A DNA stretch of 64,000 bases from Ignavibacteria bacterium. GTDB lineage: Bacteria > Bacteroidota > Ignavibacteria > Ignavibacteriales > SURF-24. The position numbers and the translations under genes were made by a program. Below the pieces are notes generated by a model, which was given only the letters and a program-made list of their open reading frames with translations, did not search any database and had not been told where the DNA came from. Below, one piece after another: positions 1,855 to 28,171 of this stretch; positions within the stretch are counted from its first letter, which is position 1, and every line of letters starts with the position of its first letter. The DNA lies in contig JAAXKQ010000005.1 of assembly GCA_025612245.1 (NCBI GenBank), positions 70,009 through 134,008 of the forward strand, in the 5' to 3' direction.

Positions 1855-2885
1855 CGAAGCTCCTGATTCTGCTGGATTTCAAACAAGTGGACCAGCATTC
1901 TTTTTAAGAATATTGTCTTTCTTTTTCCCTGAATTACAGGCTTTCGGGGAATCTTTTTCTCCAGGCCTGACTTTTTCAGCATGCCTTCCAGGAGACACGA
2001 CAATGTATAAGTCTGTGCCGCCTGATCCATGTAGGAAATGTTGGGGTCAAATGATACGTCGTAGAACCAGAAATTCCCACTGTCATCCAGAACGCCGAAA
2101 GCCTCGTAAAAGCTCATTCCAAGCAGTCTAAAGAGGGTCTTACCCATATTCTTCAGCACTGGCTGAGGGATATAATGCGTAAATTTTTCCAGCTCCTCTT
2201 TGAAGGCCCCCCTTTCAGGCGGTGAAATCAGACTGATCAGAAGCGGGTTGTCCTCAAAAAATGTAAGCCTTAAAAGGCTTCCGCGCTTTGGTTCATACAT
2301 TAGGTGCGGAAGCGCTAAACTGCCCGCATTAAAAAGTTCTTCCAGCTTCTCGGAACCTATCTCCCTTACAGGCGTCATGGAATCGGGGCTGGACCAGAGA
2401 ATTCCCCCCAGGCGATTGAACATAAGCCTCGCTTCAGAAAGTGAGTTTGTAAGGCATAATTCCGGGACACTTAGCCCTGCATCCTTTAGTCTCATGAGCA
2501 CTTCATGCCTCGAAGTCAGGTTTAAGGACAAGCTGAAATCATTTATTACGGTATATTCATTTTTTTTTGACGAGAGTATGTAAAGCAGGCTGTAGAGCTG
2601 GCTTGTCTGCTGCTGCTGCGACAAGTGAAAGTCCTGAAAAAAGGTCCAGTCGGCAGAAGGTTTTAAGGCAGGGCCGAAGGGGAACCTATAATAGACTCCT
2701 GAAAGAAAAAATACGGATCCTTTTTCGGGCCTGGAGCCACACAGGAGTATTTCCTCCGGGGAAATTGATACTGTAAATTGAGGATCCTTCGGGCACAAAT
2801 TCCTACATTTGATTCCGTTTTTCCGTGCTATTTTCTTCAAGAGCTCCGTCTGAGGGTTATAGTCATCACTTATCAAATAGAGCAT
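1851..2885 (-). CDS. Divergent ATP-grasp-like protein
   Basis: 344 aa. The layout matches an ATP-grasp: RHEVLMRLKDAGLSVPE, then GGILWSSPDS, then LLRLTFFEDNPL, then GVLDDSGNFWFYDVSFDPN. The D-x-N metal motif reads D-V-S, so it is degenerate. Overlaps the TolC-like gene by 20 nt. Confidence 0.45.
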   Translation of the reverse strand: MLYLISDDYNPQTELLKKIARKNGIKCRNLCPKDPQFTVSISPEEILLCGSRPEKGSVFFLSGVYYRFPFGPALKPSADWTFFQDFHLSQQQQTSQLYSLLYILSSKKNEYTVINDFSLSLNLTSRHEVLMRLKDAGLSVPELCLTNSLSEARLMFNRLGGILWSSPDSMTPVREIGSEKLEELFNAGSLALPHLMYEPKRGSLLRLTFFEDNPLLISLISPPERGAFKEELEKFTHYIPQPVLKNMGKTLFRLLGMSFYEAFGVLDDSGNFWFYDVSFDPNISYMDQAAQTYTLSCLLEGMLKKSGLEKKIPRKPVIQGKRKTIFLKRMLVHLFEIQQNQELR

Positions 2886-4608
2886 GTTCCGCCTTCTGAT
2901 TGTCCGTATTATTTATGATTTCCAGGGCCGTCCGGGGTTTAATTCCCAGGTATTGCATAAACTGTATGAGCAGGTCTATCTGGCTGTCGTAAACATTAAG
3001 TATGGCCATTGTTTCCGACAGGCCGGTTTTTTTATACTCGCTGTAGTCAAAGCGTGAAATACGCTGTATTTTGAAGAGCTCCTCGCCTTCCTTCATTATT
3101 TTGTTTGCGTAGGAGAGGTTATTGCGCGCTGAATTAAGGCTGATGTTGGAGGATTTCAGCTTAAATAAAAATTCATTTACCTGCAGATTAATATTCTCCT
3201 TTGTACTTTTGAGGTTCTGTTCCTGCTGTTCGTAATCTTCAATTGCAATCTGCCTCTGTATCCCGGAAGGGGAGGAAAAAAGGCTGAACCTGTAGTTAAA
3301 GCCTACATTCCAGGCAATGCCGTCGGGTTTACGGAAAAGGTTTCCAAGTGAATTTGTAATGGTGGAATATCCAAGCTCATCTGACTCAAAGACAGCCATG
3401 TTGCCTGTAAGAGAAATATCCGGCTTATACTGGTTAAGTGAATAGGCTAAGTTTACCTTTGCCTGTTCGAGCGACTTACGGGAAATTTCTATTTCCGGGT
3501 GCATATCTATAATTTTATCAGTCCCATCCTGCAGGCAGTTATTTACAAGGAACTTTTCGAAAGCCTCAAGATAGGTGTGTACGGAGTCAATTTGTGGAAT
3601 AAAAAGGTACATGTCCTGTGAGTTGACTACACTAGCCGGGTTCAGCTTTGCTGAAAGTGATATATAGTCGAAGAGCATCTGGTCCTTATCAGAAAGCATT
3701 TGCCTGTGTTCTTTTTCTATACGCAGGCGGTCGTAAACCGAGATCAAGTTTTTTGCAGTCAGTACCTGCTGGTCCTGCAACTGAACTTCCGTAAGCGCAA
3801 TCATCTCATGAATCAGCTTGAGCTTGTTCCAGAGGAAATATATTTTGAAGTAGTTTTTAATGGTCTCGTAGGATATGCTGTTTACTGCAATCTGTGAATT
3901 AGTTTTTGCAATATCGATGCTGATTTTTGTAATCTTCTTCTCATTCTCAACAGAAGAGCCTTCCTGTCCGGCATTCTTAAATAGGGGAAGTTCAAAACTG
4001 TTAGACAGTATGGCGCTCCATGGATAGCCGTATGCCTGTGGGAGGACCCTGTTTTTTAAGGAAAGGTTAAGCGCGTTGATGGAAAGTCCGTATGAAGTCC
4101 TGTAGTTAAAGCCCATACTATAAGACTGAAGAAAGTCCCTGTAGTCTGTACTTGCGTGGAGCTCAATTTCTCTTTCCTCCCATCTCAGAGGCTGGGGGAT
4201 CCACATGACGCCGCGGCCGCCGTTGGGAAGCCTGTAATCTGACTTAATTGGGTTCCTGTTATCCCATTCGACGGGAACCCTTGCATTTACGTCAACCAGT
4301 CTGTCGTATGAGCGGTAACCCTGAAGGCCTGCAGAGAGGTTAAAAACGGGTTTATAAGTCTCATCCGACAAAGAAAGCTGAAGGTCGTACTTTTGGATCT
4401 GTGTCCTGATAGAGCCGATTGCATAGGAGCTGCTGACCTGGTGGCGGATAATATCCCCGAGGTCCCTTGCTTTAAGTGAATCAAATACGGCAGAGCGCCC
4501 GGGAAAGATCTTGTTAAAATTATCAAGTATATCGCTTTCCGTCTGGGCATGAGCCGTTGCGGCATAAACAGCTAATATAAACAGTATTCTAGCGAATGAT
4601 CTCAGCAT
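2866..4608 (-). CDS. TolC-like outer-membrane channel (outer membrane efflux protein family)
   Basis: Start reassigned to the ATG at 4606-4608, giving the signal peptide MLRSFARILFILAVYAATAHAQ. About 580 aa with two-fold coiled-coil/beta-barrel organisation typical of the OEP family. The 5' end overlaps the upstream gene by 20 nt. Confidence 0.8.
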   Translation of the reverse strand: MLRSFARILFILAVYAATAHAQTESDILDNFNKIFPGRSAVFDSLKARDLGDIIRHQVSSSYAIGSIRTQIQKYDLQLSLSDETYKPVFNLSAGLQGYRSYDRLVDVNARVPVEWDNRNPIKSDYRLPNGGRGVMWIPQPLRWEEREIELHASTDYRDFLQSYSMGFNYRTSYGLSINALNLSLKNRVLPQAYGYPWSAILSNSFELPLFKNAGQEGSSVENEKKITKISIDIAKTNSQIAVNSISYETIKNYFKIYFLWNKLKLIHEMIALTEVQLQDQQVLTAKNLISVYDRLRIEKEHRQMLSDKDQMLFDYISLSAKLNPASVVNSQDMYLFIPQIDSVHTYLEAFEKFLVNNCLQDGTDKIIDMHPEIEISRKSLEQAKVNLAYSLNQYKPDISLTGNMAVFESDELGYSTITNSLGNLFRKPDGIAWNVGFNYRFSLFSSPSGIQRQIAIEDYEQQEQNLKSTKENINLQVNEFLFKLKSSNISLNSARNNLSYANKIMKEGEELFKIQRISRFDYSEYKKTGLSETMAILNVYDSQIDLLIQFMQYLGIKPRTALEIINNTDNQKAEHALFDK

Positions 4609-6847
4609 AGTCTCCCGGTAAAATTTTATTTCTTGACTGTTCGGTGATCTGGACTGAAATGAGTCCGTCACGATTGGATAATATTTTTCCTTTCCCCGCA
4701 TAGGCCATTTCCTGTTCGCCAAGGAAATCCGACTTTGCGTTGCTGATCCTGGCAAACCTGACTTCCTTTCCGGCCTCAACAATCATGCTTGCCGGAAGCC
4801 TGAGCTGTGCAATTCCATTTTCAACTTTTACAACTTCCATGTAAAGCGGGACGTGCATCGTCACCTCAAAGACCATGCGGAACAAGTTAGGCGGATTGCT
4901 TTTTGCAACCATGCGGTTATAAAAGAGCTGCTTTTTTACTCCCGGTTTTTCCTTGAAGCAATTGAAAACATATTCATTAAGGCCGTCTTTCTGGTTAACC
5001 TGGCAATAGAGGGCTACCTTGGAAATCCTGTTCAGGTTAGCCTGTGAAAGCCTCAGGTTTTCGACATCCACGACTTCAAAGCCGCGTTGTGAAAGATTTG
5101 CCACCAGTGCACTTTTAAGCCTGCTGACGTCAAGTTTTCCATGAGCCTTGACAGGCATGAGAAATATCTTGTTCACCTTGGAGAGGCTTTCAGAATTGAA
5201 GCTCTGGAACATGGTTCTTAATTTACTCTCATCAACAGCTGCCCAGTCGCCATACGGGTGCAATGTAAAGGAGCTGCTGGAATAAATGACTGTCGGATCT
5301 GCCGTCCTGAGTATTGCCTGTATATTTGAAACGACGTTCTGCGAAATGTTATCTTTGCACCACATTAAAGACAAAGGCTCGCTGCCTACGGAGAAGTTCT
5401 CTATGAGATTTGCTCCAGGGTTGGCGTACTTGTAGTAGTAGGCCGCCTCTTCGCTCACGAAGGCCACGTCGCTTTTGCCAGCAATGACAGAGTCAATTGC
5501 ATTGTAGGACATTTTTGCGTAGCTGAGCCTTGAGAAGTATGTCTCGGGATCGACGCCGCTTTTATAGAGCGAGAGGAAGGGTGAAAGGTAAGCATTTTTT
5601 GAAAACACAGCCTTAGTTCCCCTGATGCCATAAATATTTTTGAAAGTCCTTCTGCTCGAAACGGCAACGACATTAACGTAATTTTTCTTGCTCCAGGTCC
5701 TAATCAGTATAGGATGCCCGGAATGCGAAGAGTACAGCCGGTCCGAGATAATATTGTTGAAAATTGCAATGCTTACCGCGCCACTGGTGTAAGCATCGTA
5801 GAGCTCTTCCTCGGAGCCGTAAATCTTGAGCTGGAACTCCACGCCGCAGTTTTTCTTCAGGAACTGCAGCACGGGTTGCCATTCGGCTGCCATGGTGGTG
5901 TTTCCCACCGGCAAGACTGAAGTGCTGCTGATGCCGATTACCACGTCGCCTATACCGGCTAAGCCCTGAAGAGAATTGTTCCCTATAATGGTGAGTTTCG
6001 GGAACTGCGACTGCAGGTCCTCCATTATGCTTGAGCGTTCCTCGGCATTTGTGGATTTCATGTACATGGAATACTTATCCCAGAATTTTTTCCATGCAAA
6101 AGCCTTGGGGTAAAGGTTATTGAATATATATTTAACAGTGCTGTACATGCCGGGAAATTTTTCCTTGAGAACAATGTCGTGAGCCTGAAGTATGTTTGTA
6201 ATGTTAGAGCCGTACGTAAAGAGCGAGTCTATCTTCCAGGATTCCGGCGCAACACTTGCAGCCTCCGGAGGGAGGGGATAATCGTTGTAAAACTTTACGA
6301 ATGGAACGACTTCACGGAACAGGTCGACCAGGAACAGCATGTCGGGATTGTTTTGTTTTACAAGCCTGAAATCCTCCTCATTCATAGCAGCCAGGCTGAC
6401 GTCGCCGTAGGTGGCAAACTCAATTTCAAGATTTATCACGTTCTTTCTGACAATCAGTTCACCGTAAATTTTCTTCAGCTCCTGCCTGGAAGGATATTTG
6501 TCAACTGCCAGCCTGAAGGTTTCTGTCAGGTCGTCAGTTTTTGTAAGAAGAGTATCGATCTGCTCCATTGTGGTGAAATTTCGTTCGGAATACTTAATGT
6601 AATTTTCAAACTCGCCCGTTATCTTTTTAACGTACAGGTTCTCCTCTCGGACGCCTCTGACATAAATAATAGCCGTAAGCAGGACGGAAAGGAATACAAC
6701 CAGGGTTACTCCGAGCATCGTTTTTCTTTTCTTTGAGAGCCTGAAAGCGTTGACCGGTTCTTCTTTAGGGGCTTCTTCTTTTGGAGTTTCTTCCTGTTCA
6801 AGGAAAAGCTTTATTCCCTCTTCATCTGTTATTTTATATTTATTCAC
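4589..6847 (-). CDS. Single-pass membrane protein with large extracytoplasmic region containing a PhnD-like (type-2 periplasmic binding protein) domain
   Basis: 752 aa. Charged N-terminus, then one TM helix (MLGVTLVVFLSVLLTAIIYV). The central segment EWQPVLQFLKKNCGVEFQLKIYGSEEELYDAYTSGAVSIAIF...GTKAVFSKNAYLSPFLSLYKSGVDPETYF...SDVAFVSEEA resembles phosphonate-binding (PhnD) folds. Its start codon directly abuts the upstream stop codon (6847/6848). Confidence 0.55.
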   Translation of the reverse strand: MNKYKITDEEGIKLFLEQEETPKEEAPKEEPVNAFRLSKKRKTMLGVTLVVFLSVLLTAIIYVRGVREENLYVKKITGEFENYIKYSERNFTTMEQIDTLLTKTDDLTETFRLAVDKYPSRQELKKIYGELIVRKNVINLEIEFATYGDVSLAAMNEEDFRLVKQNNPDMLFLVDLFREVVPFVKFYNDYPLPPEAASVAPESWKIDSLFTYGSNITNILQAHDIVLKEKFPGMYSTVKYIFNNLYPKAFAWKKFWDKYSMYMKSTNAEERSSIMEDLQSQFPKLTIIGNNSLQGLAGIGDVVIGISSTSVLPVGNTTMAAEWQPVLQFLKKNCGVEFQLKIYGSEEELYDAYTSGAVSIAIFNNIISDRLYSSHSGHPILIRTWSKKNYVNVVAVSSRRTFKNIYGIRGTKAVFSKNAYLSPFLSLYKSGVDPETYFSRLSYAKMSYNAIDSVIAGKSDVAFVSEEAAYYYKYANPGANLIENFSVGSEPLSLMWCKDNISQNVVSNIQAILRTADPTVIYSSSSFTLHPYGDWAAVDESKLRTMFQSFNSESLSKVNKIFLMPVKAHGKLDVSRLKSALVANLSQRGFEVVDVENLRLSQANLNRISKVALYCQVNQKDGLNEYVFNCFKEKPGVKKQLFYNRMVAKSNPPNLFRMVFEVTMHVPLYMEVVKVENGIAQLRLPASMIVEAGKEVRFARISNAKSDFLGEQEMAYAGKGKILSNRDGLISVQITEQSRNKILPGDYAEIIR

Positions 6848-8098
6848 TTATCTTTTCTCCTTAAATGAGGAAGGGTGGATGTTGTATTTTGTACAAAGCT
6901 GATAGATCCTTGAGAATGACAGACCGGCAGCCTTTGCCACCTGTTTGATTTCACCCTTGCATTCAGTCATCATTTTTTCCAGGGAGTCTTTGCTGTTAAC
7001 ACTTTTGGTGCCGTTTCCCATTGCAGGCACTTCCTCGGCAATAGGTTTATTTATTCCGTTAAACCTGTTCTGGTAAGTTTCCGTCAGGTGCTCAATTGAA
7101 GAAACGCTTCCTTCGGGTGTCAGTGCAATGATGAGTTTTGCAATGTTTTCAAGTTCCCTGATATTTCCCGGATAGTCGTACCTTGAGAACAGGAATTCCT
7201 TTAATTCTGCGCCCAGCTCCGGAACGGGCAGGTTCAGCTCCCTGGAAATGTTGCCCAGAAAATGTTCCAGCAGAAGCGGTATCTCGTCTTTTCTCTCCCT
7301 TAAAGGCGGCATATAGATCTCGCAGACCGAGAGCCTGTAATAAAGGTCCTCCCTGAACTTACCCTGCTCCATAAGGCGGCTTAAATTTTTATTCGTTGCG
7401 GCAATTACCCTTACATCAACGTTGACCGTTCTGTCCAATCCGATCTTTTGAATTTCGCCGAACTGAAGGACGCGCAAAAGTTTAACCTGAGTGCTTTCGT
7501 TGAGTTCACCTATTTCATCAAGAAATATGGTACCCCCGTCGGCTTCTTCGAACTTGCCGGGTCTGAAGCCTGAAGCTCCGGTAAAGGAGCCTTTCTGATA
7601 TCCGAAAAGCTCAGACTCAATCAGCTGCTCCGGTATGGCTCCGCAGTTTACTGGAAGGAATTTCTCTTTTTTGCTCAGCTGGTGAATTACCCTGGCAAAG
7701 ACTTCCTTGCCCGTACCGGTCTCACCAGTAATCAGTATCGGGTAGCCCGTTTTGGCAAAGCGAACGGCCATAGTAAGCAGCTTCATTATTTTGGGATTTT
7801 TACCGATAAAGTTCGGAAATTCGAACTCAGGAGCCCCGGTTCCTTCAGAAATGCCGTAGACATTACTTACCGGTGAGAACGATACGATCTGCCCACGAAG
7901 CATGTCCAGCTCGGTCAAAATCGAATGTCTTTCGGATTCCAGTAGCCTGCTGTTTGCAACCATCTGCCCCCGCAGGACTTCCACATGAAGGAGCATGTTA
8001 TTAATCCTGCTGCCCGAGCTGTAAAACGAAGCACTAACTTTGGCATCCAGTCTGTTGTTATCCTCAAGAGGAAGAATCTTCAGTTTAGTATTTTTCAT
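6848..8098 (-). CDS. Sigma-54-dependent transcriptional activator (bEBP) without a recognisable receiver or sensor domain
   Basis: 416 aa. AAA+ core with Walker [16 protein letters not shown], the GSFTGA loop (GAFTGA variant), Walker [19 protein letters not shown] and [11 protein letters not shown]-terminal Fis-type HTH (IKQVAKAAGLSFSRIYQLCTKY). Only about 95 aa of coiled-coil-like sequence lie N-terminal to the AAA+ core. Confidence 0.9.
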   Translation of the reverse strand: MKNTKLKILPLEDNNRLDAKVSASFYSSGSRINNMLLHVEVLRGQMVANSRLLESERHSILTELDMLRGQIVSFSPVSNVYGISEGTGAPEFEFPNFIGKNPKIMKLLTMAVRFAKTGYPILITGETGTGKEVFARVIHQLSKKEKFLPVNCGAIPEQLIESELFGYQKGSFTGASGFRPGKFEEADGGTIFLDEIGELNESTQVKLLRVLQFGEIQKIGLDRTVNVDVRVIAATNKNLSRLMEQGKFREDLYYRLSVCEIYMPPLRERKDEIPLLLEHFLGNISRELNLPVPELGAELKEFLFSRYDYPGNIRELENIAKLIIALTPEGSVSSIEHLTETYQNRFNGINKPIAEEVPAMGNGTKSVNSKDSLEKMMTECKGEIKQVAKAAGLSFSRIYQLCTKYNIHPSSFKEKR

Positions 8099-11100: not shown

Positions 11101-11148
11101 TGACACAGAATTTAATTTTTCTAAAACCGCATCTTCTTTAAAATACAT
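8119..11148 (-). CDS. C39 peptidase-domain ABC exporter with two N-terminal cyclic-nucleotide-binding-like domains
   Basis: 1009 aa. Two cNMP-like modules lie at about aa 15-125 and 150-250 (LFSGLTAEEMEAL...GDFTGEMSFI; YYVVKGSIEIL...GDFLGEYGAITG). The C39 domain has Gln299, Cys305 (RQHDEMDCGAACL), His378 (GYHWIVL) and Asp394 (VADPA). A six-helix TMD follows, then an NBD with GKSGCGKST, VSGGQKQR, IFIFDEATSALD and IIAHRLS. Confidence 0.9.
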   Translation of the reverse strand: MYFKEDAVLEKLNSVSLFSGLTAEEMEALSANTSTRKLTLGEELYNEGDEQNTFISVVSGSLRLKKKIDDKLRSVGKLNAGDFTGEMSFIRPGCWDYSISSADETLVYEINAGKPELASVASKLKKEIACSEFKRLLSKIVAVKKPDEAWLGQLSESVWISGYEEAETIFKQDEMSNSLYYVVKGSIEILRDMPEGKFSVGLAHNGDFLGEYGAITGRKQGYEARTKTAATLLEIPNNFVQEIFSLNGALREALLEKINSYETEEKRQKELSSHTSETEDEFPAFDEGKKIKKFPWLRQHDEMDCGAACLTMVSKFYGHKLSMGMVREMANVSVAGASMAAVCKAGENLGFRTRGLKLTYPALKDVNLPAILHWQGYHWIVLFKISKEFVWVADPAIGIRKISHGEFKKSWTGYAIELEPTERLNELKPAKNPIFRYINYLKPMKIFLIEVFIGALILNILGLASPLFIQSILDNVIVYKNTSLLNMMLMGMVLVAFFSTLTSSAQQFIIATISAKLDLRMLAEFFKYVLSLPMSYFYNRKLGDTITRFGENSKIRAILTEASISTVLNVIMLVVYLQMMFLYSVTLSLVVLAFIPFFIALTFVFTPIFKRISNEQFIVSSDQSSYLIEAIHGIETIKANGTEWNVRNRWEESFLKSVNLSFKSQKLGLVSGVISQTLNTASTVAILWVGSNQVINGSMSIGQLMAFNALIGSVMGPIMSIVGLWDNYQSVSVAMDRLNDVFECEPEEKPVVSAGEIKREMTHCDGRIEFNNLQFRYGSEDSPLVLKSISLKVEPGQVVAFVGKSGCGKSTLIKTIPGFIMPTGGSLLIDGVDIKNINLLSLRRNIGMVLQESFLFSGTVMENIALGDINPDEKRVREAAEMAAAHEFITQLPAGYKTIVGERGLAVSGGQKQRICIARALYRNPKIFIFDEATSALDAESERKIQENLNNILVNRTAFIIAHRLSTVRNADIICFLGDGIVLEKGTHDELIRQKGFYYAMAKDQLGVE

Positions 11149-11150
11149 AT

Positions 11151-12569
11151 CTATTTCCTTTCATCCTCACCGCTCAGGTAATCAAAGAACTTTCCTATAG
11201 GGGCAAAGACCAGTTCAATAATCCGTTTTTTACCTACAACAACTTCAGCCAGGCCGTTAGCCCCGTAAATCAGGTTTATTCTGGGGTTCTTTTTCGTAAA
11301 TCCCACCTGTGCTTCATAGACATATCCCAGGCCCTCGACGAGCTTTGTATCCTTTGCCAGGCTGACCAGCTGTCCTTCCTGGACCCCGTACTCCTGGTAG
11401 GGGAATGCGTGGAATTTTACGAATACCGGCTGACCAACTTTGACTTTTGAAATATCCTTGTTCTCAATGTATATCATTCCGTATCTTGGAAAATCGTTCC
11501 TGATTATCCGGCAGACAACCTCGCCCTGGTTGATCATTTGAGACGACTTTACGAAAAGCTGGCTTACGACGCCGGGGAACTGCGCTTTTACGATGGCCTG
11601 GCTTTGTGTTATTTCAACTCCCTCGGTCCTGCTGTTTACATTTTTTATCTGCAGGTTATAGTCCGAAAGCTGCGTGGCAAGGCTCTGCCTGAGTGAGCTC
11701 ATCTGTTTTAAGGCATTAAGGATGTCCGACTTGAATGAGCTGACATAGTTGTCTATTGTTGAAGAGACAGAGTAGTATTCTCTTTCCGAATTCATCAAAT
11801 CGGGACTGGAGATAATGCCTTGATTTAAGAGAGTCTTATTTTCATTATAAATTTTTGCGCGCTTTGAAAGAAGAATATCCGATTTCCTGACTTCATTAAG
11901 AAGATTGTTCGCACGCACCTTTAAGTCGGAGACCATCAGCCTGTATTCGTTGAGGCCGTTATATTGACTTACGTCATAAGCCGAGGAATCAAAACTGAAG
12001 TCATTCAGCTCTGCGATAACCTCGCCTGGAATAGGGACGCTGAATCTTTTATCTTTTTTCCCGTAGTATTCCCCGATTCCCTTTGTCTGCCTGATGAAGT
12101 CGCCCAGTTTTATTATCTTTTTAATTATTTCGTCGCGCTTATCTGTGAGATCCTTTTTTTCGAGTCCTGTCACGTTAATATTGGGGGAATAAATGGACAG
12201 GATTTCGTCATTAAAGGTGACGATGTCATTTTCATTGATCCCGAGTGAGGATACAATTCCGGAGAATGGCGCCTGCACGACGTATTCCTCGCCCCTTACG
12301 ATAAGGGGTGAACTGACCGTGTCGTCGACCTGCACAATTGTCGAATAGATGATGGCTCCGATTACAATTACAAAGACGAGATAGACCGGTCCCCTTAAAA
12401 CCCAGCTTGGAGGCGTATCCAGGAAAGTAGCTACAGAGACGGAAAATTCCTGCCTTGTTGTGTGCTCAAAGAGGTTTAGTGCCTTGTACTTTACGGGCTC
12501 ATTGTCTTTGGGGCTATCCTTTTTAAATTTTTTTCTGAAAAGAGAATAGAGTTTTTTTATTTTATCCAT
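11151..12569 (-). CDS. HlyD-family periplasmic adaptor (membrane fusion protein)
   Basis: 472 aa. N-terminal TM helix (VYLVFVIVIGAIIYSTIV), a lipoyl-like hairpin (VVQAPFSGIVSSL...ILSIYSP), a long coiled-coil, and a C-terminal beta-barrel (IVKAQFPGVVSQL...GEVVCRII). Ends 2 nt before the ABC gene. Confidence 0.8.
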   Translation of the reverse strand: MDKIKKLYSLFRKKFKKDSPKDNEPVKYKALNLFEHTTRQEFSVSVATFLDTPPSWVLRGPVYLVFVIVIGAIIYSTIVQVDDTVSSPLIVRGEEYVVQAPFSGIVSSLGINENDIVTFNDEILSIYSPNINVTGLEKKDLTDKRDEIIKKIIKLGDFIRQTKGIGEYYGKKDKRFSVPIPGEVIAELNDFSFDSSAYDVSQYNGLNEYRLMVSDLKVRANNLLNEVRKSDILLSKRAKIYNENKTLLNQGIISSPDLMNSEREYYSVSSTIDNYVSSFKSDILNALKQMSSLRQSLATQLSDYNLQIKNVNSRTEGVEITQSQAIVKAQFPGVVSQLFVKSSQMINQGEVVCRIIRNDFPRYGMIYIENKDISKVKVGQPVFVKFHAFPYQEYGVQEGQLVSLAKDTKLVEGLGYVYEAQVGFTKKNPRINLIYGANGLAEVVVGKKRIIELVFAPIGKFFDYLSGEDERK

Positions 12570-12640: not shown

Positions 12641-14761
12641 CTATTTTAAGATCATGATCTTTTGTGCCTGAGTAAAACTTCCACACCTCATCATCACAAA
12701 GTATGTGCCGCTTGGAAGATATTTTCTCCCCCATGAAAGCTTATGGTAACCTTTGGTCATCAGTCCTTTTAATATGTCTTCCACCTTTCTGCCCGTTACG
12801 TCATATAGTCCGATCTCGACATAGCCTTCCTTCGGGATGGAAAAGTGCAGAGTGGTAGATGGATTAAAGGGATTAGGATAAGGTTCATATAAAGCGTAAG
12901 CGCCTTTTTTAATCATGTCATTCGGAGTCTGGCAGTGCTGGTGAAACAGCCCCGTCACGGCTACGGGAAAAGGATTCGGATGCAGCAGGAATAACGGTAT
13001 TTCATCGGGGTTCTGCATGCCGTCATCTTCACAATAAAGGTAGTTATTTGTTACTTCAAGGTTTACCACTTTGAGGCTTTTCATCGTATCAGGTATTGTC
13101 TTGAGGAAGTTGTCTGATATGTTTATGGTTGCAACCGGGTTTTTGAGCTTTGTCAGGACAAGTGGCATTGAAGTAAACTTGTTGTTGTCGAGAGTTAAGT
13201 TAGCCAGGCTGTCAAGTCCGGAGAAACTCTCCGGAAGGTCCGTTAGCTCGTTATAAGACAGTGTAATGTTTACGAGCCTCATTTTTCCGAAATTCTCCGG
13301 GAGTCTGGCCAGTTTGTTGTTCTTAAGGCTGAGTACCCTGATCTCCGGGAGGTTGCAGAAGCTCTCCGGCAATTCCACCAGTTTATTATTCTCAAGGTTC
13401 TGCACCACAATACCCTTCAGATTTCCGTAGTTTTGCGGAAGGCGGGTAAGTTCGCAATTTTGCAGTGCAATTACGCGGAGCTGGGTCCCTATCTGCCCGA
13501 ATGTTTCGGGCAACGTTTCCAGGGGGTTGTCATTCAGATAAATTTCCTTCAGAGTGTGAAGGTTTCCTATGGAGCCCGGAATACTTGTAAGTGAATTGCC
13601 GTATAAAAAGACAGATTCAATGGATGGGAAGCTTCCGAAGGCAGAAGGCAGCAAAGAAAGGCTGTTGCTCGAAAGGTCCAGCATCTTTAGCTGCGGCATC
13701 AGTCCAATGTCATCCGGCAGAGATGATATCTTATTAACTGAGGCATTGAATGATTCAAGGCTATCCATCTGCCACATGTTTATGGGCAGCGTCTTTAAGG
13801 CATTTTTTGAAACGTTAAGAGACTTTAGCCCCTTCAGGCTTGTAATTCCGCCGGGAAGGACCTCAAAATTATTATCCGCAAGTATGAGCGTCTTCAGGCT
13901 AGTCTTCAGGCTAAAGAGCCCTTCAGGAAGCGTTTTCAGGTAATTTTTCTCAAGGTTGAGCAAATTTAGTTTCTTCAGGCCTCCAAGAGTTCCGGGGAGG
14001 CTTAAAAGAGAGTCATAAGTAAGAGATAATGTTTCGAGTCTGGACAAGCTCCCCGTGCTGTTCGGGAGCTTATAGAGCGAACGGTTGTTATCCAGGTAAA
14101 GTTCTGTAAGAGGTAGCCCATCCAGGTCTTCTTCTTTTATTTCTTTAATTATATTCCCGGCAAGGTTCAGATACTTCAGCTTACCAAGCCTGTTAAAGAA
14201 TTTGATGTCGGAGCCAAAGCCCGGGATGCAGAACAGTGTGTCTGCAGGCAGCCTCTGAAGTCCGTTTGCCGACAGGTCCAGATAGCTCAGTGAATTAAGA
14301 TACACAAACTTTTTCGGCAGGGCGGTAAGCCTGTTGCCGGAAAGGCTCAGGAACTGAAGGCCGGAAAAAGCAGTGATCTCATCGTCGAGGCTTTTAACGG
14401 CATTGTTATTCAGAATCAGTGTGTCTAAATTTGTGAGCTTGTAAAAATTTACGGGCAGGAAGGTAATCTTGTTATAGCTCAGGTCCAGATAGTGCAGTGC
14501 CGTAAGGTTTTCAATTGTTTCGGGAATATTTTCCAGGTCGTAATTGCTTACGATAAGTTTCTCGAGTCTCCCAGTAAAATAATTCCATTTTTGATAACCT
14601 ATCGATCCCGGGGCTTCACCATACAGGCTGTTTGCCGCACACAGATCCCTTATAAATTGAACGTCATCCTCATTAAGCGATAACTGAGCAAAGGTTGTCT
14701 GAAGGAAAATGCACTGAAAAGCTGCAACTAATACTAAATTTCTCAGCCAATTTATTTTCAT
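12641..14761 (-). CDS. Leucine-rich-repeat protein with T9SS C-terminal sorting domain
   Basis: 706 aa. Signal peptide (LVLVAAFQCIFLQTTFAQ). Roughly twenty 23-24-aa LxxLxLxxNxLxxLP repeats by hand estimate. C-terminus is YPNPFNPSTTLHFSIPKEGYVEIGLYDVTGRKV...KIMILK. The 71-nt gap to the HlyD gene has no evident hairpin. Confidence 0.85.
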   Translation of the reverse strand: MKINWLRNLVLVAAFQCIFLQTTFAQLSLNEDDVQFIRDLCAANSLYGEAPGSIGYQKWNYFTGRLEKLIVSNYDLENIPETIENLTALHYLDLSYNKITFLPVNFYKLTNLDTLILNNNAVKSLDDEITAFSGLQFLSLSGNRLTALPKKFVYLNSLSYLDLSANGLQRLPADTLFCIPGFGSDIKFFNRLGKLKYLNLAGNIIKEIKEEDLDGLPLTELYLDNNRSLYKLPNSTGSLSRLETLSLTYDSLLSLPGTLGGLKKLNLLNLEKNYLKTLPEGLFSLKTSLKTLILADNNFEVLPGGITSLKGLKSLNVSKNALKTLPINMWQMDSLESFNASVNKISSLPDDIGLMPQLKMLDLSSNSLSLLPSAFGSFPSIESVFLYGNSLTSIPGSIGNLHTLKEIYLNDNPLETLPETFGQIGTQLRVIALQNCELTRLPQNYGNLKGIVVQNLENNKLVELPESFCNLPEIRVLSLKNNKLARLPENFGKMRLVNITLSYNELTDLPESFSGLDSLANLTLDNNKFTSMPLVLTKLKNPVATINISDNFLKTIPDTMKSLKVVNLEVTNNYLYCEDDGMQNPDEIPLFLLHPNPFPVAVTGLFHQHCQTPNDMIKKGAYALYEPYPNPFNPSTTLHFSIPKEGYVEIGLYDVTGRKVEDILKGLMTKGYHKLSWGRKYLPSGTYFVMMRCGSFTQAQKIMILK

Positions 14762-14903: not shown

Positions 14904-16472
14904 ATGATGCCAGTGAAAGTTATAGCTTTAATTTCCTCCATGTTTGTACTTTCGTCCTTACTTACATTTGCAGGGGGAATCCGGGTTAAAAACGCCGTAA
15001 TTGATGAAATAAACCTGCAAAAGAAATATGCCTATGTGAGTTTTGACCTGAGCTGGGAAAACTCATGGCGGAGTGATCTGCCCGGAACGGGCCATGTTGA
15101 CCCTTTTAACCACGATGCCGCCTGGGTATTTGTGAAATATAAGGACCAGGCGGGCTACTTCAGGCATGCATTGCTTTCGAGCATAAGCCGGAGCCACGTT
15201 TCGGACGGGAAAGCTGCAATTAGTGCATCCCCGGATGGCAAGGGGGTCTTTATTTATTCCGGGAGCAATTTTTCGGGGCGCGCTGAATACAGGGGAATTA
15301 GGCTCAAATGGAATTTTGGTTCTGAAAATGCGGAAATTAAGAAAAGTACGGAGATCAGGGTCCTTGCTGTTGAAATGGTCTATGTTCCTGAAGGCTCCTT
15401 TTATGCCGGCGACGGCGCTTCCTATGGAAGCCTCTACGGCAAAACTCAGGATGTGCCATCGCTAATCGGCGAAGGCGAGAGCCTGGTTAGGGCTTCCAGG
15501 AACAGTTTTGATGATGAAGCTCTCATTCAGGAAGGATTTTGGATTTCGGGTAAATCGGGCATAAGATCCAAAGACGGCTCATTTGAAAATCCGGAATACC
15601 CGTGCGGATACGGAGCCTTCTATATTATGAAGTATGAAATATCACAGGGAGAGTATTCCGGGTTTTTGAACCTGATTTCGGTAAAACAGTCATACAGGCG
15701 TGAAGCAAAGGCCTATGGTGAATACAGGAATACGATCAGATTTGACGGAAATAAGTTTATTGCAGAACGCCCTTCAAGGGCCTGCAACTTTTTAAGCTGG
15801 ATGGATGGCGCTGCGTATGCAGACTGGACGGGGCTGCGCCCGATGAGTGAGCTTGAGTTTGAAAAAGCTGCCAGGGGTTTTAACTCCGGGGCAGGTCTTC
15901 CAAATGCCGCAAAAAAGAATGAATTTGCGTGGAATGATGATAGCATCAGTCCCGCACTGTCAATTGGGGGAAAGGAAGACGGTTCTGAGGTGGCCGAAGG
16001 TAATGCTGCATTTGGCAATGTAACCTATAAAGGAGGCGACGGTATGTCCGGTCCCTTGAGGTGCGGGATCTTTGAAAATCCGGGACAGGGGAAACTTTCA
16101 GGCCGAAGCTACTATGGGGTCCTGGACCTAAGCGGCAACCTTGCCGAACAGTGTGTTACAATCGGCAACCAGGCAGGCCGTTCATTTACAGGTAATGAAG
16201 GTGACGGCATGTTGAATGAAGCCGGGGACGCCGACGTAAGCTACTGGCCGGGCATTAATGGCAATTCAGATCAGGAGAAGTCAAGCCTGGCCTATGTGGG
16301 AAATGTTGTTGAAGGGCCCGGGGTTACTGCTGCAGCCGGAAGCGGGCAGAAAGGAGGCAGCTGGTATACGAAAAAGAGTTTCCTCATGATCAGCGACCGC
16401 TCGTACGCTTCACATCCGCTTGACTATAGATCCGAGTCCGCCGGTTTCAGATGCGTAAGAAGTGCCAGATAA
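14904..16472 (+). CDS. Exported FGE-sulfatase (SUMF1/GldK-like) domain protein
   Basis: 522 aa. Signal peptide (VIALISSMFVLSSLLTFAGG). The C-terminal half has SWMDGAAYADWTGLRPMSELEFEKAARG, YGVLDLSGNLAEQC, KGGSW and a terminal GFRCVRS, matching the formylglycine-generating-enzyme fold signature. Confidence 0.75.
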   Translation: MMPVKVIALISSMFVLSSLLTFAGGIRVKNAVIDEINLQKKYAYVSFDLSWENSWRSDLPGTGHVDPFNHDAAWVFVKYKDQAGYFRHALLSSISRSHVSDGKAAISASPDGKGVFIYSGSNFSGRAEYRGIRLKWNFGSENAEIKKSTEIRVLAVEMVYVPEGSFYAGDGASYGSLYGKTQDVPSLIGEGESLVRASRNSFDDEALIQEGFWISGKSGIRSKDGSFENPEYPCGYGAFYIMKYEISQGEYSGFLNLISVKQSYRREAKAYGEYRNTIRFDGNKFIAERPSRACNFLSWMDGAAYADWTGLRPMSELEFEKAARGFNSGAGLPNAAKKNEFAWNDDSISPALSIGGKEDGSEVAEGNAAFGNVTYKGGDGMSGPLRCGIFENPGQGKLSGRSYYGVLDLSGNLAEQCVTIGNQAGRSFTGNEGDGMLNEAGDADVSYWPGINGNSDQEKSSLAYVGNVVEGPGVTAAAGSGQKGGSWYTKKSFLMISDRSYASHPLDYRSESAGFRCVRSAR

Positions 16473-16535: not shown

Positions 16536-16574
16536 GCCGGACTATAATATTATAATTTATATCAGGCCGGACTA
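16536..16574. repeat. Direct repeat GCCGGACTA x2 with a 30-bp period, each embedded in an AT-rich palindromic context
   Basis: GCCGGACTA occurs at 16536-16544 and 16566-16574, flanked by TATAATTATAATATT / TATAATATTATAATTT. Lies about 65-120 bp upstream of the candidate -24/-12 element. Confidence 0.5.
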
Positions 16575-16639: not shown

Positions 16640-16655
16640 AGGCATAAAACTTGTT
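16640..16655 (+). promoter_or_regulatory. Weak sigma-54 -24/-12-like element upstream of the precursor genes
   Basis: AGGCAT-N5-TTGT compared with the consensus TGGCAC-N5-TTGC. GG is at the correct -24 position but the -12 GC reads GT. Lies 55 nt upstream of the ATG at 16711. Confidence 0.25.
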
Positions 16656-17620: not shown

Positions 17621-17630
17621 TTTTCAAAAA

Positions 17631-17658
17631 GATCCCGGAATATCCGGGATCTTTTTTC
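17631..17658 (+). terminator. Rho-independent terminator after the precursor pair
   Basis: GATCCCGG(A)-loop-(T)CCGGGATC stem (17631-17651) followed by T6 (17652-17657). Begins 11 nt after the stop codon. Confidence 0.8.
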
Positions 17659-17803
17659 TTCAGCTGCATCTCAATGCTGAAAAATAAAAAATGTTCGATG
17701 ATAATTTGTGAATGAATTTTTACTGAGTTTTCGTTAACTTGTTCCCCGATTTTTGTTCCCAAGACCATTGGGAATTTAACTGTTTATCTTGCAAGGAGGA
17801 TTC

Positions 17804-19120
17804 ATGGAAAAATATTTCTTTAATGTTCGTAATTCCCGGATATACTGTTCTGACGTCCTGAACTTCATGAAATTAACCGGCCTTTATCATACAGCTCATA
17901 CCTATACGGCAATGAACTCGGTCCTGAAAGAATTTGCAAAAAAGCTTGGCGTAGCAGTTAGCGATGAGATGCTCCAGAATTATGCTGATTATAAAAGAAA
18001 GCAGCTTGGACTTCTGAAGGCAGAGCAGATGCAGAAATACCTCGATACGCTGGAAGTCTCACTTGAGGACTGGGAGACTTCGCTGGAAGATGAACTCTAC
18101 CGTATTGAGCTCAGGAATAAATTGGGAGGTTCCATTTATGTCGGTGACGCCTGGAACATACTCAAGACGATTCCGGAGATCAGAAACAGCATAAATGAAA
18201 TTATAGCAGAAAAAGCTGGCAGCTGCAAATTGGACTTAAGCGACGAAGAGCTTCAAAAGGAATCGGATGTTTTAAGACGAGCCCTTAACCTCCACAAGAA
18301 AAGTGATCTCTCGGTATACCTGAACAGCCTCAACATGAATGAAGAGGACTGGGAGAAAAACGTAACAGCGAGCGTTTTTTCGAGAAAGTTAAAAGAAAAG
18401 AATATTTCTCCTTTAACCAAAAATGAAGTAGCCAGCATATTAAACCGCTACCCCGTAATAAAGGATCTCCTGAGTAAACTTGTCTTCGGCAATATTATAA
18501 GGGCCAAAGCTTCAGAACTGAATATTTCGGTTAGCGATGAAGAGCTCAACTCCTACGCCGAAAACTTCCGCAGGGCTTTAGGTCTCCATAAAACAGAGCA
18601 TTTTAACATCTGGCTGAATGCCGCCGGATTAAATATAGAAGATTTTGAAATTATGGCTGAAACGGCCATACTGGCAAAGAAGGTAATTCAAAACTCAGAT
18701 GAACTACAGTACAAGGGCGACATTGAAAAAAGCGTAAAGTGCAGTTCATTTTTCAGCGATGCTCTCCTGGAAGTAATCTCGCAGGAGCTCATCGCCTCCG
18801 AAGCAAGGCAGAAAGGAATGAAGGTCAGTGACGCTGAACTGCAGGAACTTTCCGATGCTTTAAGGCGCGTCAACGGATATCACAAGGCTTCAGTATTCGA
18901 AAAACACCTGGAATTCTACGGCCTGCCTGCTGAATGCTGGGAAGAGTACGTTGAAAGACAATCTTTGATTAAAAAGATGAAAGAGGCCCAGACCACTGAT
19001 GAGAGGGTTCTGGAGTATCTCCATGATAATAAAGAAGCTTTAGATTCAATGAAAGCTGAAGCATTCAGGGACTACGCTTATAAGCTGTCTTCAAAGTCTC
19101 AACTTGAATGGTTCAACTAA
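17804..19120 (+). CDS. Cytoplasmic protein built from four SurA-N-terminal-like repeats
   Basis: Start moved to the ATG at 17804, which has an AAGGAGGA Shine-Dalgarno sequence upstream. 438 aa with no signal peptide. A module of about 95 aa recurs four times: x(V/L)SDxELQxxxDxxRRxLGLHKxxxFxxxLxxxGLxxEDWE, with the SD(E/A)E cores encoded near 17957, 18236, 18530 and 18824. Confidence 0.6.
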   Translation: MEKYFFNVRNSRIYCSDVLNFMKLTGLYHTAHTYTAMNSVLKEFAKKLGVAVSDEMLQNYADYKRKQLGLLKAEQMQKYLDTLEVSLEDWETSLEDELYRIELRNKLGGSIYVGDAWNILKTIPEIRNSINEIIAEKAGSCKLDLSDEELQKESDVLRRALNLHKKSDLSVYLNSLNMNEEDWEKNVTASVFSRKLKEKNISPLTKNEVASILNRYPVIKDLLSKLVFGNIIRAKASELNISVSDEELNSYAENFRRALGLHKTEHFNIWLNAAGLNIEDFEIMAETAILAKKVIQNSDELQYKGDIEKSVKCSSFFSDALLEVISQELIASEARQKGMKVSDAELQELSDALRRVNGYHKASVFEKHLEFYGLPAECWEEYVERQSLIKKMKEAQTTDERVLEYLHDNKEALDSMKAEAFRDYAYKLSSKSQLEWFN

Positions 19121-19159
19121 TCAGTTTCATTTTTTCAATAATTTAACCGGATAACTTAC

Positions 19160-19918
19160 ATGGACGAAGTAGTTTTATTAAATGTCAATGATAACCCTGT
19201 TACAAATTCCCAGATCATGATCAGGCTGAAAGCGAAAGGCGAATATAAAAAAGCCTTATCAGAACAGATGATGAATGTTGCATTGAAGGACTATGCCCAG
19301 AAAAACGGCATATCGGTTTCAGATTCAGAACTGCAGGAATATGCCGATAAAAAAAGAAAGGAACTGGGTCTTTTCTCGGTGACCGCTACGGAAAAATATT
19401 TTTCCAACCTGGGAATTAACATAGACCAGTGGAGTGACGGGCTAGAAGAAGAGCTCTTAAAAGAAAAGGTCAAAAAAACAGTTGCTACAGAAGAAAAAGT
19501 AAAAGAGTATTTTGAAGCCAACAGGCTGCGCTTTATTTGTGTGCCGCTGCACAGAATAGTAGTAAAAGAAAAATCCATGGCAGAAGAAATCAGGATGCAG
19601 ATAGAAGACGAGGACGAGGACTTTTCCGCACTGGCCAAAAAGTACTCTATCGACAGCTCTACAGCCCCAACGGGCGGCTATATGGGGGTAATCAGGCGGG
19701 GTGCTCTTCCGGTTGAAGTTGAAGCAAAAGTATTCAGCGCAGCCGAAAATGAACTCTGCGGCGTTTTTGAAGATGCTGATGGATATTCCCTGTACAAGCC
19801 CGGGAAAGTCGTATATCCCGAACTTGACGAGGCCATGAAGGAGAATATAATAAAAGGATTGTTTGACCTATGGACAAATAACCTTCTTAATTCGGCAACC
19901 ATAAAATTCCCTAACTAA
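19160..19918 (+). CDS. Parvulin-type peptidyl-prolyl isomerase with one SurA-N-like module, no signal peptide
   Basis: 252 aa. The N-terminal half is homologous to the repeats of the upstream gene (NGISVSDSELQEYADKKRKELGLFSVTATEKYFSNLGINIDQWSD). The C-terminal rotamase-like segment is HRIVVKEKSMAEEI...FSALAKKYSIDSSTAPTGGYMGVIRRGALPVEVEAKVFS. Confidence 0.7.
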   Translation: MDEVVLLNVNDNPVTNSQIMIRLKAKGEYKKALSEQMMNVALKDYAQKNGISVSDSELQEYADKKRKELGLFSVTATEKYFSNLGINIDQWSDGLEEELLKEKVKKTVATEEKVKEYFEANRLRFICVPLHRIVVKEKSMAEEIRMQIEDEDEDFSALAKKYSIDSSTAPTGGYMGVIRRGALPVEVEAKVFSAAENELCGVFEDADGYSLYKPGKVVYPELDEAMKENIIKGLFDLWTNNLLNSATIKFPN

Positions 19919-27894: not shown

Positions 27895-28171
27895 CTTCCT
27901 GCACCTTCCAGCAGCTAAATTTCCGGTTTATCCACGGGGGAAAAGCTGATAATGGGGAAAAAAGTACGCTGTAATTGATGTCCGTATTTTTTAATTAATT
28001 ATGTCCCCGAAATAAATTCAAGTAAAAGAAATTCGCGCAAGAACTGCCGATTTGCAGCAGTTTTTCTTCCGACACTGCCTTTCTTAAAAATCTATTGCCA
28101 GTGCTATAAATGTTTTTTGCCCTTTGAAAAATCCATTTGATATAAATAAATATTTAATCTATGGAGGGCCA

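Follow-up and report, generated by a model that had tools for sequence, protein, structure and literature searches.

Organization of the locus

A 64,000-nt stretch of DNA from an Ignavibacteria bacterium (assembly GCA_025612245.1, contig JAAXKQ010000005.1, positions 70,009 to 134,008; hereafter, the window) hosts two adjacent genes encoding SurA-like proteins, denominated here A and B. The two genes lie just downstream of a pair of genes for glycine-rich precursor peptides carrying a GG leader, in a cluster that also encodes an HlyD-family protein, a peptidase-containing ABC transporter (PCAT) and ATP-grasp-like enzymes. All features are listed in Table 1.

Protein A is made up of four tandem modules of about 100 aa, which can be cut at about residues 1-108, 109-205, 206-310 and 311-438. 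All pairs of modules are significantly similar by BLASTP (E 6e-8 to 5e-15, 27-37% identity). TIGR04500, the best NCBIfam family for A, matches the protein in four stretches (99.9 bits, 1.6e-28), and Pfam SurA_N_3 matches it in three (1.5e-15). The 21 modules found in five A-family proteins and in B share in register the motif VSDxELQxYSDxxRRxLGLHKxxxFxxxLxxxGxxxxDWE; in their alignment an Arg is invariant throughout and a Glu almost so. When the module profile was compared to the PDB, the top match was E. coli SurA, residues 48-126 (E 1e-3), over nearly the whole profile length. As judged from this match, the modules of A are of the SurA-N type. The relation was found solely through the module profile, because searches with full-length A, by phmmer against PDB sequences and by Foldseek against the PDB, gave no significant match. 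The structure model of A is all helix (predicted local distance difference test score, pLDDT, 79; predicted template modelling score, pTM, 0.66) and includes no parvulin domain. Tandem multiplication of the SurA N-domain module was found in no solved structure searched. The ATG at 17804 is preferred as start of A over an alternative TTG upstream, at 17789, because AGGAGG precedes the ATG.

The B gene follows A after 39 nt. Its product features one module and a parvulin-type domain, matched by Pfam Rotamase at residues 138-213 (E 3.4e-13); SurA_N_3 matches weakly residues 25-104, and TIGR04500 is again the best NCBIfam family (71.7 bits, 6.5e-20). Residues 3-105 of B and 2-104 of A are 36% identical over 103 residues (E 4e-20 with full-length proteins, 4e-24 between the segments). 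The AlphaFold model of B (pLDDT 88.8, above 90 in the parvulin part) consists of helices, a beta-sheet domain and a C-terminal helix (residues 224-245), and is matched over its full length by SurA and PrsA structures in Foldseek (E about 1e-12). The C-terminal tail of A was considered as a counterpart of this last helix and discarded, as the tail is dissimilar and the short linker helix alone is similar (TDERVLEY vs TEEKVKEY, z 3.2).

A hydropathy heuristic detected in neither protein a hydrophobic segment fit for a signal peptide or a transmembrane helix. The peak 19-residue Kyte-Doolittle hydropathy is 1.0 in A and 0.66 in B, vs 1.7-2.4 in exported and membrane proteins of the same window. 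Both proteins thus look cytoplasmic. A first-pass annotation, made from the DNA letters, had described A as four copies of one module, B as a single copy fused to a parvulin segment, the two N-termini as homologous and both proteins as free of signal peptides and transmembrane helices, and the analyses above bear out each of these points. The same annotation had envisaged that the modules might turn out to belong to an unrelated helical family. This does not apply, as the module profile leads to the SurA N-domain and B folds like SurA and PrsA.

The parvulin domain of B

Parvulins feature a conserved pair of active-site histidines, H59 and H157 in Pin1, H146 and H239 in PrsA (PMC2678132). When B is aligned to PrsA structures and to Par10 of E. 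coli, the first of these positions is occupied by Arg, with a His one residue earlier, and the second by Ser. The replacements are a family trait. Among nine close relatives of B the first position is R or K in eight, and the second is S, T, A or E in all nine; in the wider set of relatives of about 250 aa, just one of 79 retains both histidines. The alignment of the broad B family contains no stretch conserved enough for the scanning of loci.

Precursor peptides and flanking DNA

The leader of both precursors fits the sequence M.RIKLNDLE.NQQLDAEALK.VTGG. Eleven precursors have been compared. Their cores are 115-132 aa long, contain 26-39% Gly and are free of Cys; one Lys, within GxKxGG, and one Asp are invariant. 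The tail fits the consensus DNxSxSxS(I/V)P(V/I/L)T, in which the Pro is invariant, and is the sole Pro of the core in 10 of the 11 peptides, in agreement with the single conserved proline noticed in the first-pass annotation. The two invariant residues suggest that a single side-chain cross-link is possible. A search for precursor homologues was flooded by low-complexity Gly-rich candidates, and provided three matches only. Nothing was found in the literature on Gly-rich GG-leader peptides in Fibrobacter, on this specific cluster, or on a link between EbfG/PteB and SurA.

The hairpin separating precursor 2 from A has a free energy of -20.9 kcal/mol (z -4.9), and none of 200 shuffled sequences was as stable. 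It was not listed by a simple terminator scan, but looks like a terminator or attenuator, which would keep precursor transcripts well in excess of those for the accessory proteins. Upstream of precursor 1, in AT-rich surroundings, the direct repeat GCCGGACTA is found at 16536-16544 and 16566-16574, the two copies being 30 nt apart. It is followed at 16640-16655 by AGGCATAAAACTTGTT, which resembles a sigma-54 -24/-12 element (GG-N10-TG). Repeat and element could be the target of the sigma-54 activator encoded in the cluster, and are mentioned only as a lead; across the window, matches to the sigma-54 promoter consensus are no better than chance.

Distribution and gene order in other genomes

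The profile of A was searched against 1.84 billion representative proteins. At E <= 1e-30 the A family includes 10 representatives, eight of which are full-length four-module proteins and two are fragments. The next 560 matches all have a single module, and are either about 250 aa long (module plus parvulin, as B) or about 135 aa long (module alone). Of the best 139 single-module relatives, 137 match TIGR04500, a family named 'putative peptide maturation system protein', at E <= 1e-5 (best 1.9e-49), and about half feature a Rotamase domain. Scans of genomes and of metagenomes with the A profile provided three loci each. Altogether, A homologues have been identified in 11 lineages, at 32-79% identity, including metagenome-assembled genomes (MAGs) of Fibrobacter and Chitinispirillaceae.

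B is found directly after A in 10 of the 11 lineages. The exception is the lineage represented by loci L011-13 and L026; in L011-13, A still adjoins a precursor though B is not nearby. The order A-B-HlyD-PCAT, with a PCAT carrying two cyclic nucleotide (cNMP)-binding domains, is found in loci L005, L008, L009, L020 and L027, and contigs L023 and L024 stop at A-B-HlyD. Precursor homologues adjoin A in the window, in L002, in L005/L007 and in L011/L026, and are located in the same 26-kb cluster as A in L016+L020. Synteny with precursors, which the first-pass annotation had proposed to look for in other genomes, is thus seen in five lineages. A adjoins a precursor even at loci that have no PCAT nearby. 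The gene set of the window recurs in L005 and in L016+L020, and in both an ATP-grasp gene is located beside the precursors; ATP-grasp orthologues are accordingly found in all three clusters visible in full. Overall, a cluster of at least 11 genes is common to Ignavibacteria and Fibrobacterota. The coordinates of the ATP-grasp pair are 6164-7231 and 1866-2867 in L005, and 10702-11775 and 7204-8205 in L016.

A conserved protein of 222-235 aa, with no family match, is encoded between or beside precursors and A in some loci (L005 7955-8662, L016 8655-9323, L009 6395-7084, L010 671-1360). L009 and L010 are from Fibrobacter MAGs, and the protein is absent from the Ignavibacteria window. Two precursor homologues, featuring the same leader and an IPVTMN tail, are found beside genes for a Rce1-like CPBP protease and a small lipoprotein-like product in L017 (7665-10426), and similarly in L018 and L019, which together represent one lineage. 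Neither a PCAT nor an ATP-grasp gene was found within 10 kb of the precursors in L017-19. Since precursors occur at these loci without A and B, the precursor family is wider than the A-B cluster.

Single-module relatives are found also in other peptide clusters. In a Bacillota MAG (GCA_049323755.1; L014 1971-8993) two B-like genes, each followed by a gene for a short GG-leader peptide, flank a 4'-phosphopantetheinyl transferase gene, a cNMP-type PCAT gene and a truncated gene similar to HlyD. The B-like proteins encoded there have kept the second active-site His. In GCA_024449835.1 (L029 1195-14534) a 136-aa single-module relative is encoded amid YcaO, TfuA, three radical-SAM and LanB-like dehydratase genes. 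Because of these neighbors, the module family is found also in a cluster of ribosomally made peptides that carry post-translational modifications (RiPPs) of another chemical class.

Comparison with known systems

The association of SurA-like genes with PCAT and HlyD genes has already been published. Wang, Fewer and Sivonen (2011) described cyanobacterial bacteriocin groups I, II and VI, in which a long-type (CAP_ED) PCAT and HlyD are accompanied by a rotamase-domain gene called 'SurA' (PMC3140520). As in the window, these clusters feature a long-type cNMP PCAT, HlyD, a rotamase/SurA-like gene and GG-leader precursors. On Leptolyngbya and Tolypothrix plasmids, the neighbors of PCAT and HlyD include genes for proteins that align with 85-96% of the length of B at 25-30% identity. 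These proteins are B-like also in the absence of a hydrophobic N-terminus, in the module motif and in the loss of the first active-site His; in the Tolypothrix plasmid two B-like genes lie side by side. The differences are several. No four-module protein lacking a parvulin domain has been described in the cyanobacterial clusters of the 2011 survey. The window cluster belongs to other phyla (Ignavibacteria and Fibrobacterota), has a distinct family of Gly-rich precursors of about 150 aa, and includes in addition a TolC-type factor, a sigma-54 activator with a sensor, and two ATP-grasp-like genes.

A second known relative is MirC, the TIGR04500 member of the rosaritide graspetide cluster. MirC was shown to be needed for graspetide maturation: the synthetase MirB depends on it, and the two proteins co-purify. 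Each of them is insoluble alone, and a role as chaperone or in substrate delivery has been proposed for MirC, whose PPIase-like (peptidyl-prolyl isomerase-like) part has little likeness to an active PPIase (Carter et al. 2026; PMC13097080). Like A and B, MirC has a SurA-like chaperone core; it is cytoplasmic, as A and B look to be, and is encoded alongside an ATP-grasp maturase (a maturase-like enzyme in the window) and a TIGR03796-like PCAT. In contrast to MirC, A and B score below the TIGR04500 cutoff of 180 bits, and both lack the N-terminal domain of about 86 aa, resembling a RiPP recognition element (RRE), that is essential in MirC. In the profile alignment B covers positions 87-336 of 340, and the best module of A positions 119-212. 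Moreover, the module is multiplied four times in A, and the ATP-grasp genes of the window are related to TIGR04187 only distantly (50 bits vs a cutoff of 350).

The periplasmic or lipoprotein chaperones SurA, PrsA, PpiD and PEB4/Cj1289 share with B both the fold and the order of domains, an N-terminal helical domain, an inserted parvulin and a C-terminal helix (Foldseek E 1e-12 to 1e-9). By the same hydropathy heuristic, A and B differ from SurA, PrsA and PpiD in having no signal peptide, lipobox or membrane anchor; the RRxLGLH...DWE motif of their modules is not found in the aligned SurA segment. NifM, an accessory protein of the nitrogenase Fe protein, is a cytoplasmic parvulin-containing protein serving one client, as B is proposed to be. 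Identification of B as NifM was discarded, since the match is limited to the parvulin segment (31.9 bits, 1.2e-7, vs a cutoff of 168), and no nif genes are present among the ORFs scanned up to position 30000.

It follows from the cyanobacterial and MirC precedents that a cytoplasmic SurA-N/parvulin protein is not unusual, contrary to what had been supposed in the first-pass annotation (PMC3140520; PMC13097080). Within this known class, B is an ordinary protein. A, a four-module protein lacking the parvulin, is a rare and undescribed variant of the same cluster-associated, SurA-like class.

Other genes of the window

Genes located on the minus strand from 14761 down to 772 form a single, tightly packed co-directional array, which encodes the leucine-rich-repeat (LRR) protein, HlyD, PCAT, sigma-54 activator, sensor, TolC/OEP factor, 344-aa protein and ATP-grasp enzyme. 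The two ATP-grasp-like genes (772-2885), members of the conserved cluster, had been missed in the first-pass annotation. The 360-aa enzyme matches TIGR04184 (50.4 bits, 1.8e-13; cutoff 475), TIGR04187 (50.1 bits, 2.3e-13; cutoff 350) and rimK_fam (45.6 bits; cutoff 143), and its orthologues, 40-41% identical, adjoin the precursors in L005 and L016. The 344-aa protein is 29% and 31% identical to its L005 and L016 orthologues, respectively, and matches weakly the L016 ATP-grasp gene (E 6e-5).

Table 1. Genes and DNA elements of the locus, in window coordinates.
Feature	Position	Strand	Description
Protein A, 438 aa	17804..19120	+	Four tandem modules, predicted SurA-N-type chaperone units; without parvulin domain, without signal peptide
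Protein B, 252 aa	19160..19918	+	One module, parvulin-type domain (about residues 127-214), C-terminal helix; SurA/PrsA-like fold, active-site His pair lost
Precursor 1, 148 aa	16711..17157	+	GG leader MARIKLNDLEVNQQLDAEALKNVTGG, 122-aa Gly-rich core, conserved tail DNxSxSxSIPVT
Precursor 2, 150 aa	17168..17620	+	Paralogue of precursor 1, 82% identity
14-bp GC-rich hairpin and T-run	17626..17660	+	6 nt past the precursor 2 stop, 143 nt upstream of A
FGE-sulfatase-like protein (SUMF1 domain)	14904..16472	+	Signal peptide; directly upstream of the precursors
Leucine-rich-repeat protein	12641..14761	-	Type IX secretion system (T9SS) sorting tail; LRR genes recur in L005, L016
HlyD-family membrane fusion protein	11151..12569	-	Orthologues directly after B in other loci
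Long-type PCAT, 1009 aa	8119..11148	-	Two cNMP-binding domains, C39 peptidase, ABC transporter; orthologues 53-63% identical in related clusters
Sigma-54-dependent transcriptional activator	6848..8098	-	Beside PCAT also in L005, L009, L016/L020, L027
Sensor-like protein	4589..6847	-	Periplasmic-binding-protein (Phosphonate-bd) domain
TolC-type outer-membrane factor (OEP)	2866..4782	-	Listed TTG start overlaps the upstream gene; true start probably further downstream
Conserved protein, 344 aa	1851..2885	-	Distant ATP-grasp paralogue; 4-nt overlap with next gene
ATP-grasp ribosomal-peptide-maturase-like enzyme, 360 aa	772..1854	-	Best families MvdD TIGR04184 and TIGR04187

An LRR protein is encoded in all three full clusters (L005 4105-6174 and L016 11705-13663, besides the window), and its gene adjoins that of an OMP_b-brl_2 outer-membrane protein in L005 and L016. 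The LRR protein likely belongs to the cluster, where it might act as receptor, anchor or immunity protein. The FGE-sulfatase-like (formylglycine-generating enzyme-like) product was considered as a tailoring enzyme and discarded, as it carries a signal peptide and tblastn detected no counterpart of its gene at any of the related loci; it probably stands outside the system. An ORF of 2141 aa at 28124-34549, with many Ig-like repeats and, at its C-terminus, a sorting sequence of the T9SS type, seems to have no relation to the cluster.

Proposed role of A and B

On balance we lean, with modest confidence, toward the reading that A and B are a dedicated cytoplasmic chaperone/adaptor pair for the two Gly-rich precursors, which they would hand over to ATP-grasp enzymes and exporter, the parvulin domain being non-catalytic. 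A role directed to the precursors is favoured because the element shared by all contexts in which the module is found is a ribosomal precursor peptide, which in most cases has a GG leader and comes with a PCAT of the cNMP type. That A and B often come first in an operon with HlyD and such a PCAT fits a role before export. Each module would be a SurA-N-type helical peptide-binding unit, four of which would be supplied by each A chain, and one by B, clamped by a parvulin-like domain with a structural or binding rather than isomerase function. Together the two proteins would bind the disordered, Cys-free precursor of about 120 residues, keep it soluble and unfolded, and present it to the ATP-grasp enzyme or enzymes. 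The precursor would then be passed to a type I exporter formed by the cNMP-regulated PCAT, HlyD and TolC, with removal of the GG leader by the PCAT. The first-pass annotation had regarded A and B as cytoplasmic holdases that keep the precursors competent for export. The SurA-N modules, the cytoplasmic look, the synteny and the operon with HlyD and PCAT support this view; with two ATP-grasp-like genes in the cluster, however, a role as partner in the maturation of the peptides is no less likely than one as pure export holdase.

Several observations weigh against a non-catalytic pair devoted to the precursors. In six of the A lineages no precursor is visible, the contigs ending before the whole cluster there, and conversely the precursor homologues of L017-19 have neither A nor B within 10 kb. 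The sole interaction demonstrated for MirC is with the enzyme, not with the peptide (PMC13097080). As to the parvulin domain, the active-site Asp, located in the YSIDSST segment at the position of Pin1 Cys113 and of the PrsA Asp, is kept in eight of the nine close relatives of B, and the double His-to-Leu mutant of Pin1, H59L/H157L, keeps high activity (PMC2678132).

The MirC precedent lends itself to a different explanation, in which A and B would be partners of the enzyme rather than of the peptide, binding and stabilising the ATP-grasp maturase, its 344-aa paralogue or both, and needed for catalysis rather than for holding or export. The TIGR04500 matches of A and B, the dependence of MirB on MirC with the insolubility of each alone (PMC13097080), and the ATP-grasp orthologues of the three fully visible clusters all speak for it. 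Yet A and B miss the N-terminal domain essential in MirC and score below the family cutoff, and are operonic with HlyD and PCAT, the ATP-grasp genes being 15 kb off in the window and variable in position elsewhere. Furthermore, B-like genes lie beside PCAT and HlyD with no ATP-grasp gene in view in Bacillota and in cyanobacterial plasmids, and in L002 and L011, where a precursor adjoins A, none is seen within 11-21 kb. Such an enzyme-directed role is possible, though we would not expect it. Targets other than precursor and maturase seem very improbable. A and B might assist folding or assembly of the cytoplasmic domains of the exporter, serve in self-immunity, or act as housekeeping chaperones that happen to be linked to the cluster. 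No precursor is present in the visible flanks of the A-B loci L009 and L022-L024, and the cNMP domains of the PCAT accompany A and B as a conserved partner. Nevertheless the A family is rare and strictly associated with the cluster (about 10 representative clusters, all of this context), A is found beside a precursor even where no PCAT is near, and relatives of the module recur in chemically different RiPP clusters that have just a precursor peptide in common.

The first-pass annotation had pointed to the tail proline as the only possible target of an isomerase. B would accordingly be an active parvulin PPIase working on the single conserved S-I/V-P bond of the precursor tail, and A a holdase. 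The invariance of that proline is compatible with this idea, as are the intact parvulin fold, confidently modelled, and the Asp and Pin1 mutant data just mentioned. Both histidines, however, are replaced throughout the close family of B and the pair is nearly absent from the wider one, which makes the tail proline a doubtful target. Inactive parvulin domains serving as chaperone modules have precedents in PpiD and in the P1 domain of SurA. Loci L011-13 host A and a precursor with the same proline tail, but no B nearby, and the PPIase-like part of MirC, as said, is unlike an active PPIase. Catalysis by B is therefore unlikely, because the His pair is lost, yet possible, since Pin1 remains active without histidines; an isomerase acting on the tail is correspondingly given a low probability.

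A bolder extension of the chaperone/adaptor reading is offered as speculation, which we hold rather improbable. The cluster might make a very large RiPP or secreted matrix protein, Gly-rich and about 120 residues long, that would represent a new class. A single cross-link, joining for example the GxKxGG Lys to the tail Asp, may be put in by one or both divergent ATP-grasps. Between them A and B have five SurA-type modules, which would act as a multivalent cradle in the cytoplasm, an 'inside-out SurA' wrapped around the disordered core and coupling modification to cNMP-gated type I export; by multiplying the module, the pair would have adapted to the client's length.

Significance

SurA-like or PpiC-like genes are a common accessory of bacteriocin and RiPP clusters of the PCAT type, and MirC is the sole member that has been studied experimentally. 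The data presented here overturn nothing established, and add a conserved cluster that would make an undescribed Gly-rich product. The locus is a useful system for testing whether such proteins serve as chaperones of the substrate, partners of the enzyme or adaptors for export, because A splits the module from the parvulin domain and multiplies it four-fold beside a long, disordered client with a single proline.

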